Positions 54,882 through 59,774 of a DNA stretch of 62,355 nt are shown here, piece by piece (positions within the stretch are counted from its first letter, which is position 1; each line of letters opens with the position of its first letter). The position numbers and the translations under genes are program-made. The DNA is taken from contig JAFVBL010000010.1 in the NCBI GenBank assembly GCA_017479985.1, forward strand, positions 1 through 62,355, given 5' to 3'. The notes beneath the pieces are model-generated. The model was not told the DNA's origin. It saw only the letters and a program-made list of their open reading frames with translations, and did not search any database. Origin of the DNA: Alphaproteobacteria bacterium. Its GTDB lineage: Bacteria; Pseudomonadota; Alphaproteobacteria; RF32; CAG-239.

Positions 54882-55061
54882 ATGCAATATCAGTTAATTT
54901 TACTTGCCGTTTTGTTTGTGGTAATATTTTTGTTGCACAAACCGTTTAATGTGCATCAGACAGATAAAAAATGGCTGCAACGATTACATCATGTTTTGGA
55001 AACAATGTTTACAGTTCAGGCAATGATTATCTTAAATGAGCTCATCAAAATGTATTTGTAA
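54882..55061 (+). CDS. Small membrane protein (59 aa)
   Basis: ATG 1 nt after the snoaL stop; hydrophobic N-terminus; the stop codon lies inside the hairpin repeat flank. Confidence 0.4.
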   Translation: MQYQLILLAVLFVVIFLLHKPFNVHQTDKKWLQRLHHVLETMFTVQAMIILNELIKMYL

Positions 55062-55064
55062 CAA

Positions 55065-55095
55065 AAAGCTTTAGCGTTAAACTCGGCTTAAGGTT
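55065..55095. repeat. Module-boundary hairpin repeat, copy 1
   Basis: AAAGCTTTAGCGTTAAACTCGGCTTAAGGTT; additionally flanked by the 9-bp inverted pair TTGTAACAA (55056) and TTGTTACAA (55094). Confidence 0.8.
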
Positions 55096-55150
55096 GTTAC
55101 AACAAGTATGTTTTTACAGCCAATTTTTCAGTTCATCTTGGTAAAGATGC

Positions 55151-55450
55151 TTAACATTGACACTCACCCTCGCAACAATCTTTAAGTAAAAACTTTGCAG
55201 CTTCTTTAACGGCCTTACAGTTTGGTTTATAAATCAAACTTTTGCCGTTTTTCTTATAGGTGCAAAGTCCTGCTTGGGTTAAAATATTTAAGTGAAATGA
55301 AAGCGTGTTTTTTGCCATAGAACCAAGTTGATTATATATTTCGGTTGGTGTAATGCCTTCTTTGCTATGTTCCACCATCAACCTAAAAATCTTCAGCCGT
55401 CCTTCTTGGCTTAATGCTTCAAAAATATTAGTAATCTGTTCTGTGTTCAT
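55151..55450 (-). CDS. arsR: ArsR/SmtB-family repressor
   Basis: FEALSQEGRLKIFRL, TLSFHLNIL..AGL HTH and C-terminal CC-x3-C-x-C. Confidence 0.88.
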   Translation of the reverse strand: MNTEQITNIFEALSQEGRLKIFRLMVEHSKEGITPTEIYNQLGSMAKNTLSFHLNILTQAGLCTYKKNGKSLIYKPNCKAVKEAAKFLLKDCCEGECQC

Positions 55451-55451
55451 T

Positions 55452-56501
55452 TTACTTTGCTCCAAAATATTTCTTTTTAGAATAAAGAGCCAAATTAACT
55501 AAACAAATTAATGCAGGCACTTCAACCAATGGCCCAATAACACAAGCAAAGGCTTGTCCTGAATTTACACCAAAAATAGCTATTGCGACAGCGATAGCCA
55601 ATTCAAAGTTGTTTCCCGATGCGGTAAAAGACACAGTTGCTGCGGTTTCATAATCAGCTCCGACTTTTTTGCTTAACCAAAACGATAAAACAAACATAAT
55701 TACAAAATATGCAATCAAAGGCACAGCAATAAGCAAAACATCCAAAGGTATTTGTATAATTAGATTTCCTTTTAAGCTGAACATAACAACAATAGTAAAT
55801 AACAATGCAATTAAAGTCATTTTGGAAACTTTAGGCATCAAATATTCATGAAACCATGTATAACCCTTAAGTTTAATCAAGATTTTTTGAGAAATAAAGC
55901 CGGCTAAAAAAGGAATACCTAAATAAATAAAAACACTTTCCGCGATTGTTTTCATTTTAATATTGATTTCAACACCATCCAAACCTATCATAGGCAATAA
56001 AACAGTAATAAAAAACCATGCATATAAGCTGAAAAACAAAACTTGAAATATGCTGTTTAAAGCCACCAATCCTGCTGCATACTCATTGCTTCCTCCTGCT
56101 AATTTATTCCAGACCAAAACCATTGCGATACACCGAGCTAAGCCAATTAAAATTAAACCTATCATATATTCGGGATAGCCGTGTAAAAATATCACGGCTA
56201 AGATAAACATCAAAATCGGCCCGATAATCCAATTCAGCACCAAAGATAAAGTTAAAACTTTCTTATTTTTAAATACTTCATGAAACTTTTCGTATTTTAC
56301 GCGAGCAAGCGGCGGATACATCATCAAAATCAAACCAACAGCAATTAAAATGTTGGTAGTTCCTATTTGGAAATGATTTATAATACTTTGGCTTTCAGGC
56401 ACAAAGTAACCTAACGCAACTCCCAAAAACATAGCAAGAAAAATCCACAAAGTCAAATAGCGGTCAAGAAAACCAAGTTTGTTTATAAGTTTATCGGACA
56501 T
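55452..56501 (-). CDS. acr3: ACR3-family arsenite efflux transporter
   Basis: [42 protein letters not shown] and GPLVEVP motifs. Confidence 0.96.
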
Positions 56502-57256: not shown

Positions 57257-57268
57257 TATATTTCCTTT

Positions 57269-57691
57269 CTATTCAAAAGTTATGGTTACACTGCCTCGAC
57301 CGAGCGTTTGTTCCAAATCAGCCGCATTTTCTATATGTCCGATACGCGTATATGAATATGCGGTCTTAAAATCTTTATAGAATACGACCAAACAATCATC
57401 ACCAAACAACATAACATCACCGGTTTTAATTTGCCCTGTATGCTTCGGTTTGCTTGGTAATGTTTCACGCAACTGGTAATACTTCTCATTGCCGTTAAAT
57501 TCCGACATTTTAATTGTCATAGGCAAAATTTCCTGTAAGGACTTAGTTGTGTCATTATCATTCAAAACAACTGAATATTCCTTATCTCCGATTTTCATTT
57601 GCATTGTTTTAATCTCCAAAGCAAAGGCTGTTGGTGCCGCAAACATAATTCCCGACACCAACAACCAAAGTATTTGCTTTATATAGTTCAT
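57269..57691 (-). CDS. Cyclophilin-like fold protein, exported
   Basis: Signal peptide; LNDNDTT, LPMTIKMSEFNGNEKY, GDVMLFGDDCLVVFY and YSYTRIG motifs. Confidence 0.85.
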   Translation of the reverse strand: MNYIKQILWLLVSGIMFAAPTAFALEIKTMQMKIGDKEYSVVLNDNDTTKSLQEILPMTIKMSEFNGNEKYYQLRETLPSKPKHTGQIKTGDVMLFGDDCLVVFYKDFKTAYSYTRIGHIENAADLEQTLGRGSVTITFE

Positions 57692-58728
57692 TACTGCAAG
57701 TTTTCCTTAAAGAATTGTTCCATTTTATCAAACGGAATAACATCTGTTTTGTAATACAAATCCACGTGATTTGCATTCGGGATAATCATCAATTCTTTAT
57801 TATCGCCCGTCAATTTTTTGAAAGCACCTTCCGAGAAATAGCGGCTGTGTGCTTTTTCGCCGTGTATCATTAACACCGGATTTTTAATGGTATCGGCATA
57901 CGCTAAAATCGGCTGTGTAATCAAAGATAATGCCGAAGTAGTATTCCAATGTCCGTTAGAATTGATGGAACGTGGATGGAAACCGAGTTTCGTCTTATAG
58001 TAACTGAAATAATCTTTGATAAATTGAGGCTCTTCACCGGTTAATTTATCCGGCAAACCTGAAGCTTCGGCATAAGTGCCATTTTGAGCATCTTTGGTGC
58101 GTTGATTGTTTAAATCCTCACGCAATTTATACAAATCATCTGCAGACATAGAATCATTATATCCTTTAGCCGAAACGCGTGTCATATCATACATTGTTGA
58201 TGTAACTGTTGCCTTAATACGTGTATCTTGTGCGGCTGCGTTCAATCCAAAACCACCGAAACCACAGATTCCGATAACACCGATTTTATTCTCATCAACT
58301 TCGGGTAATGTTGTTAAATAATCAACTGCCGCAGAAAAGTCATCGGTGTTAATATCCGGACTTGCCATATTGCGGACATTACCGCCGGATTCACCGGTAA
58401 ATGACGGGTCAAACGCCAATGTTACAAAACCGCGTTCTGCCATTTCTTGCGCGTAAAGTCCGGAAGACTGTTCTTTTACTGCACCAAAAGGTCCTGTAAC
58501 AGCAATCGCCGCCATCTTTTCACCAGATTTCTCTTTCGGTTCATATAAATCACCGACCAACTCAATACCAAATCTGTTCTTAAATGTTACTTTCTTCACA
58601 TCAACTTTATCGGACTTTGCAAATACTTTATCCCAAGCATCCGTTGATGCTCCGTTTACACTGTCCGGTGCAGCAAAAACCAAACCTAATGTTGCCATAC
58701 TAAATGCACAAAATGTTTTCATATTCAT
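57691..58728 (-). CDS. Alpha/beta hydrolase (YcjY-like), exported
   Basis: GPFGAVKEQSSGLYA, FDPSFTGESGG, GICGFGG and NANHVDLY motifs. Confidence 0.9.
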   Translation of the reverse strand: MNMKTFCAFSMATLGLVFAAPDSVNGASTDAWDKVFAKSDKVDVKKVTFKNRFGIELVGDLYEPKEKSGEKMAAIAVTGPFGAVKEQSSGLYAQEMAERGFVTLAFDPSFTGESGGNVRNMASPDINTDDFSAAVDYLTTLPEVDENKIGVIGICGFGGFGLNAAAQDTRIKATVTSTMYDMTRVSAKGYNDSMSADDLYKLREDLNNQRTKDAQNGTYAEASGLPDKLTGEEPQFIKDYFSYYKTKLGFHPRSINSNGHWNTTSALSLITQPILAYADTIKNPVLMIHGEKAHSRYFSEGAFKKLTGDNKELMIIPNANHVDLYYKTDVIPFDKMEQFFKENLQ

Positions 58729-58851
58729 TATTTTCTCCTATGTTTGGTTAATCTGACAACAATATATAGTGTTTGTTTTAATATAGCAAATACTTATTAT
58801 GAATACTTAAATATGCTTGACAGGCATATTTAACTGTTATATCTTTCCTTT

Positions 58852-59745
58852 ATGGAAATAAGAGTTTTGAAATACTTTTTGGCTGTTGCACGCGAGGGAA
58901 ATATTACTGCCGCGGCAAATGCTCTGCATTTAACGCAACCCACCTTAACGCGTCAATTACAAGATTTGGAATATGAACTCAAACAAAAACTTTTCATTAG
59001 AGGAAAGCATAAAATTACTTTAACTGAAGAAGGTATGCTGCTTCAAGACCGTGCCGAAGAAATCATTGAAATGGTACATAAAACCAAAAGTGATATTATG
59101 TCTTCAGGAAACGATATCAAAGGTGATGTGTATATCGGATGCGGTGAGACTGAGGCAATGCAATACGTTGCAGAAATCATCAAAGAAATACAAGAAACTT
59201 ATCCGAATATAGTTTTTCATATCCATTCCGGTAATGCCGAGGAAGTTATGGGAAGATTGGATAAAAAACTGCTTGATTTTGGAGTTTTGATCCAGCCGGT
59301 TGATATAACAAAATATGATAATATTACATTTCCGACAACTGATACTTGGGGCGTTTTGATGCTTAAAAGTTCGCCGTTAGCGAAATTTGAAGCCATCAAA
59401 CTGGAAAATCTTAAAAATCTTCCGTTAATCACCTCTCGTCAAGTGACCAGAAAATCCCCGAATAATGATTATACAAACTGGTTTCAGGGAAAGTTTGAAA
59501 CATTTAATATCGCTGCAACCTACAATTTAATTTACAATGCCGCTTTGCTTGTTAAATCCGGTATCGGGTACGCTATTACACTGGATAAATTAGCAAACAC
59601 TTCCAGCGAAAGCGAACTGTGTTTCCGACCTCTTGAACCGAAACTGGAAGCAAAACTGGATATTGTTTGGAACAAATTTCAAGTTCGCTCCGTAGCCGCC
59701 AACCTGTTTTTACAAAAATTACAAGAAAAGTTCGGAAAAAATTAA
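58852..59745 (+). CDS. LysR-family transcriptional regulator
   Basis: MEIRVLKYFLAVAREGNITAAANALHLTQPTLTRQL HTH; divergent from the hydrolase operon. Confidence 0.96.
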   Translation: MEIRVLKYFLAVAREGNITAAANALHLTQPTLTRQLQDLEYELKQKLFIRGKHKITLTEEGMLLQDRAEEIIEMVHKTKSDIMSSGNDIKGDVYIGCGETEAMQYVAEIIKEIQETYPNIVFHIHSGNAEEVMGRLDKKLLDFGVLIQPVDITKYDNITFPTTDTWGVLMLKSSPLAKFEAIKLENLKNLPLITSRQVTRKSPNNDYTNWFQGKFETFNIAATYNLIYNAALLVKSGIGYAITLDKLANTSSESELCFRPLEPKLEAKLDIVWNKFQVRSVAANLFLQKLQEKFGKN

Positions 59746-59774
59746 AGCTTTAGCGATTAAACTCGGCTTAGGTT
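59744..59774. repeat. Module-boundary hairpin repeat, copy 3
   Basis: AAAGCTTTAGCGATTAAACTCGGCTTAGGTT, overlapping the lysR stop codon. Confidence 0.8.

Follow-up and report, generated by a model that had tools for sequence, protein, structure and literature searches.

A genus-restricted terminator hairpin and its altered allele at joints between accessory gene modules of an uncultured alphaproteobacterium

Introduction

Several described systems place short repeated sequences at gene boundaries. In Proteobacteria, repetitive extragenic palindromes (REPs), bacterial interspersed mosaic elements (BIMEs) and REP doublets forming hairpins (REPINs) are short extragenic palindromes past the stop codons of unrelated genes, which often serve as terminators or mRNA stabilisers and are hotspots of rearrangement. 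The attC sites of integrons, such as the Vibrio cholerae repeats, are imperfect palindromes at the 3ʹ ends of units, in direct orientation and with a lineage-specific sequence, and accessory or stress cargo changes at the repeat. The pdif modules of Acinetobacter plasmids are resistance and stress modules set between short dyad sites in Xer-only hosts. The paired DNA-uptake sequences of Neisseria and the Pasteurellaceae put one inverted-repeat terminator behind many unrelated genes and promote the exchange of flanking DNA, and in mosaic phages, homologous exchange swaps modules at gene boundaries that have short sequences in common. Here, we analysed contig JAFVBL010000010.1 of assembly GCA_017479985.1 (62,355 nt; the whole contig is called the window below) from an alphaproteobacterium of the GTDB lineage RF32; CAG-239, in which three direct copies of a short hairpin-like motif lie between successive accessory gene modules.

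The locus shares with the systems above the features just named, and an earlier note on this DNA had taken the motif to be the recombination site of a gene-capture system of the HUH or tyrosine-recombinase type. Comparison with sister genomes leads us to a different reading: the motif is very probably a variant allele of a terminator-hairpin family restricted to one genus, and the hairpin appears to work most like a cross of REP-type terminator repeats and mosaic-genome boundary sequences. The mosaic boundaries belong to a phage context, whereas the present array lies on a bacterial chromosome and its shared sequence is itself a predicted terminator. A full-text literature search returned nothing on such hairpin-bounded modules.

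Results and discussion

Three copies of the motif in the window

The window (contig C40) belongs to an assembly of 1.18 Mb in 43 contigs, which is 83% complete. The pattern AAAGCTTTAGCG-N1-2-TAAACTCGGCTT has exactly three matches in the window, all on the + strand (55065–55089, 56666–56691, and 59744–59769), and none of 100 dinucleotide-preserving shuffles gave a match, which confirms the three direct copies reported earlier at 55065, 56666, and 59744. Further details reported with them were also present: the motif is trailed by (A0-2)GGTT, copy 1 is enclosed by the pair TTGTAAC...GTTACAA, the gene calls around the motif are correct by Pfam, and stop codons abut copies 1 and 3, with the TAA of a 59/72-aa open reading frame (ORF) lying within GTAAC and that of lysR overlapping the first motif bases. 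The genes preceding the three copies (arsR, flavin mononucleotide (FMN) reductase, and epoxide hydrolase) are all on the − strand. On this strand, the variant hairpins occupy 55065..55095 (copy 1, reading AAGCCGAGTTTAACGCTAAAGCTTTTTG, 61 nt past the arsR stop), 56666..56695 (copy 2, 22 nt past the FMN-reductase stop), and 59744..59774 (copy 3, 21 nt past the epoxide-hydrolase stop, with the lysR stop overlapping its other end).

No fourth copy was found when all 43 contigs were searched with up to two mismatches per half. The array recurs in three independent ENA assemblies with 99.9–100% identity, so an assembly artefact is excluded and the array is stable at the strain level. Strain-level variation was not found, as the arrangement was identical in these three other assemblies, and a corresponding look-up of G012 (see below) gave only its own contig.

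For comparison, we used 50 species genomes of the genus (rumen and gut Alphaproteobacteria, labelled G..., with individual loci labelled L...). Among these genomes, the exact motif occurs only in G012 and G063, with one copy each. When a set with a single genome for each prokaryote species and a set of metagenome contigs were scanned, the only addition was a metagenome contig of 1.5 kb (L011), and the remaining matches outside the genus were chance occurrences inside coding DNA of unrelated organisms. The search of genomes and metagenomes that the earlier note had proposed thus yielded the three copies here plus G012, G063, and L011. DNA-uptake sequences number about a thousand per genome, whereas the arm 9-mer AAGCCGAGT occurs 19 times here and stands in a hairpin at the three window copies only. 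A genome-wide repeat, an uptake sequence, or the common genome-wide terminator that the earlier note had named as its counter-case is ruled out by these counts, and family members elsewhere number zero to four per genome. A known RNA family was also rejected, since Rfam shows just two tRNAs and an S-adenosylmethionine (SAM) riboswitch elsewhere in the window, and a tRNA-fragment attachment repeat of tandem islands was ruled out because no tRNA lies near.

A terminator-hairpin family in the genus

Compared with a perfect hairpin found in sister genomes, the window motif is changed in a single arm, from AGCCGAG to AGCTTTAG on the + strand and from CTCGGCT to CTAAAGCT on the − strand. In the orientation of the window's − strand, the canonical hairpin reads AAGCCGAG-TTTAACCG-CTCGGCTTTT, and its RNA, which lies on the sense strand of the preceding gene in every instance examined, reads AAGCCGAG-UUUAACCG-CUCGGCUUUU(U). 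By pattern search, 19 of the 50 genus genomes have the perfect hairpin, and with a covariance model 25 of them have matches scoring 30 bits or more, 38 in total. Neither search found a canonical copy in this genome, and the common canonical form (loop CNNTTAAA) had no exact-pattern match in 400 other Alphaproteobacteria. Within the genus, the hairpin of about 30 nt caps unrelated accessory units with arsenic, metal, zinc-uptake, peroxide-stress, and detoxification genes.

All three window copies have a canonical counterpart at an orthologous flank. For copy 1, the flank with the 59-aa ORF (84.5% identical) recurs in G062:C12, where the ORF is followed by AAAAAGCCGAGCGGTTAAACTCGGCC. For copy 2, the flank with the FMN_red homologue recurs at G027:C6:10844. 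For copy 3, the epoxide-hydrolase flank recurs in G026:C21, G021:C236, and G004:C70, with the perfect hairpin AAAGCCGAG-C(N4-5)AAA-CTCGGCTTTGGTTTT at the orthologous place; in the first two, it has the snoaL stop on one side and the epoxide-hydrolase 3ʹ end on the other, and in G004 it lies at the matching epoxide-hydrolase 3ʹ end.

The RNA folds of the canonical members have energies between −11.5 and −18.3 kcal/mol (z −3.4 to −6.7); the stem is followed on the sense strand by a U-run, and the hairpin lies about 20–60 nt past a stop codon. In an alignment of 31 members, which had been collected by a structure-aware model, 98% of cells are paired and compensatory double changes occur at four of the eight pairs, values reached by none of 500 shuffles; for this alignment, one base was added to each of seven 7-nt loops, and loops stand outside the pair counts. 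Examples of compensatory change are CCGAG/CTCGG to CCAAG/CTTGG and GCC/GGC to GCG/CGC, and a one-sided change was seen 11 times, each time producing a sense-strand G·U that would be A·C on the other strand. The strong RNA fold, the U-run, the position past the stop codon, and the compensatory and G·U changes together indicate that the canonical form is an intrinsic terminator, and from predicted folds and covariation we take it to be of the Rho-independent type.

Canonical members thus show a stable stem-loop, a U-run, and stop proximity, whereas the window copies fail as stems. As DNA, their fold z-scores range from −1.9 to +1.0 against shuffled sequence; as RNA, they fold at −8.7, −6.1, and −3.0 kcal/mol (z −1.9, +0.3, and −0.2), and a terminator consensus scan called none of the three. 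The hairpin of AAGC/GCTT plus TTTA/TAAA described earlier is formally possible and, for some copies, comes out as the minimum-energy fold, but its energy is no better than that of shuffled sequence. These models suggest that the window copies would be weak or non-functional as terminators owing to the damaged arm. The motif is better described as a degraded allele of a perfect hairpin with RNA-level covariation and strand-specific G·U pairs than as the recombination site proposed for it.

The canonical 22-mer also occurs in two viral contigs, which have no similarity to this genome and in which it looks like an ordinary terminator. In L061 (IMGVR_UViG_3300045988_163066), the exact 22-mer AGCCGAGCGGTTAAACTCGGCT stands between A- and T-runs at reverse-complement position 3426 (about 10491–10512); it is either a chance terminator or belongs to a phage of this genus.

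The hairpin at joints between units

To compare the surroundings of the hairpin, we took the 400 nt to its left and to its right at 25 distinct instances. The upstream flanks, with the gene that ends there, fall into 8 classes and the downstream flanks into 4, and these are freely combined. The epoxide hydrolase is followed by lysR in this genome, by snoaL in G026 and G021, and by a promoter/operator with a Cys-rich metallothionein-like gene in G004. This metallothionein-promoter unit is preceded by a ZnuA/ABC-3 operon in G063, another unit in G036, the epoxide hydrolase in G004, and an apparently truncated epoxide hydrolase in G065, and so has at least three clearly different upstream neighbours. 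Homology of the shared side reaches the hairpin edge and ends at the hairpin's far edge. Where two hairpin-bearing units meet there is one hairpin only, and no tandem hairpins occur among the 25 instances.

Between species, gene content changes at the motif, as had been expected. G012:C126 and G063:C38 have in common a 3.4-kb block (94% identity) that runs from the variant motif to a canonical hairpin. Two genes that G012 has in addition (rubrerythrin-like and flavin reductase) are inserted precisely at the motif, and past the canonical hairpin the contigs bear no relation to each other; the two breakpoints on a 9.3-kb contig coincide with family members. In G026 and G021, snoaL, the hairpin, and the epoxide hydrolase follow each other with nothing between, and compared with G026 this genome holds 4.87 kb between copies 1 and 3, which are two units, each with its own hairpin. 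From these alignments, we think it probable, if far from certain, that the shared hairpin served as the crossover point at which accessory units were joined.

The promoter unit just past the hairpin (L021 = G063:C38 4137–4400; also G036:C13, G065:C4, and G004:C70) consists of TTGACA-N17-TATATG and the palindrome ATACATATAGGGGGTATATGTAT, which is likely a metal-sensor operator, followed by the Cys-rich metallothionein-like ORF. In L068 (G065:C4), at about 3924, the hairpin and promoter unit seems to abut an internally truncated epoxide-hydrolase gene, with the flank alignment offset by about 170 nt relative to G004.

Distribution of the variant arm and local history of the array

The difference between the variant and the canonical arm is a complex change, CG to AAA, which was found at five sites with canonical orthologues, distributed over four organisms, and which occupies each of the three sites of this genome. 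Outside the window, the G012/G063 variant site has a partial counterpart in G010, with a weak flank match (66 nt, 74%), and the L011 variant has a counterpart in G026:C61. The recurrence of one complex change at five sites with canonical orthologues points to an exchange of the variant arm between sites. An origin by template switching within a quasi-palindrome was considered, but no such rule yielded the change from the hairpin's own sequence, and the position at gene ends speaks against a LysR-type T-N11-A box made by the variant (TTTA-N5-TAAA).

The acr3-arsR unit between copies 1 and 2 (55151..56501, − strand; Pfam HTH_20, ArsR-type, and SBF, Acr3-type; predicted promoter 56573–56545) has no DNA-level match in the 49 sister genomes, and its nearest Acr3 protein homologues are at most 77% identical; homologues of the SBF protein are annotated as ACR3 arsenite transporters. 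By these comparisons, the unit appears to be foreign to the genus. The flank TTGTTACAACAA..TGTTTTTA shows homology to the canonical-copy flanks of G012:C126 and G063:C38 and partial homology to those of G010 and G019, which places the left boundary of the unit 30 nt or more past copy 1. This flank and the outer inverted repeat TTGTAACAA/TTGTTACAA, whose stem appears in predicted folds, make up an extended copy-1 element (55056..55125, − strand).

A 68-aa gene is represented directly 5ʹ of copy 2 (+ strand) by 79 nt of its 3ʹ part (56586..56664, − strand), a fragment that ends exactly at copy 2 and is homologous to 61893–61971. The fragment follows the full 68-aa gene up to CCGGTAACA and the copy-1 flank from GTAACAAAAAGC on. 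The two matches overlap in the 6 nt GTAACA, which the junction of fragment and copy 2 has in common with the copy-1 flank, indicating that the join is a 6-nt microhomology. Copies 1 and 2 also have 19 identical bases on the downstream side (GTAACAAAAAGCTTTAGCG), and the variant arms of at least these two copies appear to be related by local duplication rather than by independent change.

The full-length 68-aa gene (61893..62099, − strand; no Pfam match) is multi-copy across the genus. In G017, G062, and G035, it is followed after 4 nt by a segment equivalent to window 54273–54324 (the start of a small 'MDWLQFLQ' ORF), indicating that 54325–61892 (7.5 kb) is inserted material in this lineage. 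The corresponding interval measures about 1.75 kb in G010 and holds snoaL alone in G021:C172.

Search for a dedicated enzyme

This genome has two PF00589 genes, which NCBIfam assigns as XerD-like and XerC-like. They scored 135.6 and 122.3 bits against an integron-integrase model with a cut-off of 265, and no integron integrase (IntI) was found in the genome at its 83% completeness, so an integron was ruled out. The comparison of sites agrees with this. The attC sites measure 57–141 nt, with R''-L''/L'-R' boxes and extrahelical bases, whereas inspection of the 31 aligned members gives a hairpin of about 34 nt with a perfect 8-bp stem. The attC core GTTRRRY is not conserved in the family, and GTTAC stands past copies 1 and 2 only. 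Integron cassettes are mostly promoterless single-ORF units in one orientation, whereas the units here have two to four genes, their own regulators (arsR and the divergent lysR), and predicted promoters. Integrons have IntI, which was not found here, and the wobble pairs of the hairpin family lie on the sense strand. The hairpin array is not an integron, and the loose likeness of copy 1 to attC noted before is not borne out, as the site is without attC architecture.

Y1 HUH transposase (PF01797) was found in 19 of the 50 genomes, unrelated to hairpin presence, and in this genome as a 21-residue fragment only; HUH/RAYT mobilisation was rejected on this lack of correlation. REPs occur in tens to hundreds of copies together with a RAYT (REP-associated tyrosine transposase, HUH) gene, whereas the present family has zero to four members per genome and no link to Y1, and it is not a REP/RAYT system. 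The same counts bear on a tiny mobile palindrome, similar to REP/REPIN or to miniature inverted-repeat transposable elements (MITEs), that an HUH enzyme of the RAYT/IS200 type would copy behind genes, the variant being a newer master copy. Such an element would account for one sequence behind unrelated genes, for the variant allele at several sites, and for the G065 unit that seems to abut a truncated gene. However, the copies are very few (zero to four per genome), its enzyme is distributed without relation to the hairpin, and no empty site with conserved flanks and a missing hairpin was found, the flanks changing instead; we regard this explanation as very improbable.

A tyrosine recombinase of 194 aa is encoded 1.4 kb from a canonical hairpin in G012 (L005 = G012:C126, 11637–12221). 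Its homologues in nine other genomes of the genus (79–96% identity) are not beside hairpins and are often beside a 620-aa PF00589 protein. The gene is absent from this genome. Of the 18 hairpin-positive genomes 7 have it, against 3 of the 32 hairpin-negative ones, an association that is weak and confounded by phylogeny. No convincing dif of the genome itself was found for comparison, and the 9-8-9 dyad of the hairpin has no likeness to the gamma-proteobacterial XerD arm. In pdif modules, dif has an 11-6-11 layout, sites alternate in orientation, and the site is recognised by protein, whereas the hairpins here seem unrelated in sequence, are all direct in the arrays examined (the window, G012:C126, G063:C38, and G036:C13), and covary in a way that indicates RNA pairing. 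Apart from the dyad and the Xer-only host, nothing links the hairpin to pdif-type Xer modules. With XerC/XerD-like genes only, no IntI, and no co-occurring HUH Y1 enzyme, the gene-capture system of the HUH or tyrosine-recombinase type inferred in the earlier note finds no enzyme here.

A dedicated site-specific system of some kind is nonetheless kept alive, at a low probability, by the homogenised variant allele and the conserved loop. It would make the hairpin the attachment site of a gene-cassette system, whose 9-8-9 dyad AAAGCCGAG-N8-CTCGGCTTT would be recombined by the host XerC/XerD or by some other recombinase; each integration would add a module and duplicate the site, and the variant arm would be a lineage-matched allele. 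Direct orientation, a single hairpin per joint, and combinatorial flanks are what such a system would leave, and the loop or spacer is kept across unrelated contexts. The variant is homogenised at all three sites here and occurs also in G012, G063, and L011, the foreign arsR-acr3 unit lies within the array, XerC- and XerD-like genes are present, and the 194-aa recombinase lies near the G012 hairpin with its skew towards hairpin-positive genomes. Against this stand the missing integron integrase, a small recombinase that is absent here and unlinked in six of the seven hairpin-positive genomes carrying it, and a compensatory and G·U pattern that indicates selection on RNA pairing and not on a protein-binding sequence. 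Likewise, the arsR-acr3 boundary lies off copy 1, copy 2 meets a gene fragment at a microhomology, the modules bring their own promoters and regulators, and the hairpin sequence shows no clear likeness to dif. We consider the cassette system unlikely. A narrower form is about as unlikely: the terminator dyad would double as the attachment site of an undescribed chromosomal cassette system of genome-reduced gut and rumen Alphaproteobacteria, used by the host XerC/XerD or by the small unlinked tyrosine recombinase, and the switch to the variant throughout the lineage would reflect co-evolution of site and enzyme.

Proposed module shuffling at a shared terminator

Our best explanation, which we hold with about even confidence, is that the copies are a weakened allele of a genus-specific terminator and that the hairpin shared by module ends provides a short homology for module shuffling. 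It starts from the family, its terminator character, the canonical orthologous counterparts, and the combinatorial flanks described above. Each copy would close a transcription unit of the − strand (arsR, FMN reductase, or epoxide hydrolase) at its 3ʹ end, and a hairpin of about 30 nt capping unrelated units would act as a portable patch of short homology. Units would be joined or exchanged by crossovers within the hairpin or at its edge, leaving a single hairpin per joint. The exchange would most likely proceed by ordinary homologous or microhomology-driven recombination after DNA transfer and not by a dedicated integrase, a route we favour because of the lack of an enzyme candidate, the microhomology scars, and the RNA-level selection. 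Through these exchanges, the altered arm (CTCGGCT to CTAAAGCT) may have spread from site to site.

Several points weigh against this explanation. A patch of 22–30 nt is short for RecA-type exchange, and the loop TTTAACCG is conserved beyond what a terminator needs. Passive exchange accounts less well for the shared change of CG to AAA than would an active, site-directed mechanism or a factor that acts in trans and recognises the site, and a recombinase could be missing from an assembly that is only 83% complete. Breakpoints also lie at other terminators and at hairpin-free gene ends, and neighbours also switch where the hairpin is lacking. The hydrolase...lysR module occurs in at least six sister genomes with different neighbours, and four of its flank contexts, in five genomes, have no family hairpin. 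Across the sister genomes (L026–L028, L031, L032, and L069), this module of hydrolase, cyclophilin-like, and FMN-reductase genes plus lysR is 75–82% identical, with a hairpin at the module in G027 only, and it appears to be a mobile or often relocated unit in its own right. In G010 (L037 = G010:C16, 2757–4985), an insertion of about 2.2 kb stands directly after an unrelated ShlB terminator, equivalent to window position 54276, and G026 also departs from the window at further points. A hairpin subgroup in G069, G013, and G003 lies in conserved synteny, with neighbours kept on both sides. The coincidence of hairpins with joints may come in part from the tolerance of insertions between a terminator and the next promoter.

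The last of these observations are what would be expected if the hairpins were plain terminators, inherited with their genes and without a role in recombination, where breakpoints coincide with them through insertion tolerance and fast intergenic divergence. The terminator character is well supported, and the break after the ShlB terminator, the hairpin-free breaks at the ends of the FMN_red...lysR module, and the kept neighbours in the synteny subgroup all agree with this. Left unexplained, however, are the sharing of one stem, loop, and flank by at least 10 unrelated gene families, the presence of one hairpin and not two where units meet, and the complex arm change at five sites with canonical orthologues. 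We therefore also regard plain inheritance as unlikely. If the hairpins were a terminator family only, the finding would be an ordinary one, still useful for annotating these uncultured genomes.

If module shuffling at the shared hairpin is correct, integron-free gut bacteria with small genomes would shuffle stress and resistance modules (arsenic, metal, and peroxide) simply, at shared terminators, and a transcription signal would be linked to genome plasticity. The unexplained spread of a damaged allele to every site of one genome offers a handle on passive versus enzyme-driven exchange.

Other features of the region

The downstream-side neighbour of copy 1 is a SnoaL-like gene with the 59-aa membrane-like ORF (54395..55061, + strand; flank class D1). 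Between copies 2 and 3 lies the module of hydrolase, cyclophilin-like, and FMN-reductase genes (− strand) with the divergent lysR (+ strand) at 56714..59745 (Pfam FMN_red, Cyclophil_like2, alpha/beta hydrolase, and LysR). The unit ending at copy 3 consists of a YjbR-domain gene and the epoxide hydrolase (EHN), both assigned by Pfam, at 59791..61564 on the − strand. At the window end, 62099–62355 is the 3ʹ part of a transposase gene, which we take to be of the ISL3 type from its ...TEGFHRKMKLIQRRA motif. This part is repeated at 96–97% identity on C25, C4, and C26 and at 95% on C37, and also at window 28372–28443; the repeated transposase sequence probably caused the contig break.

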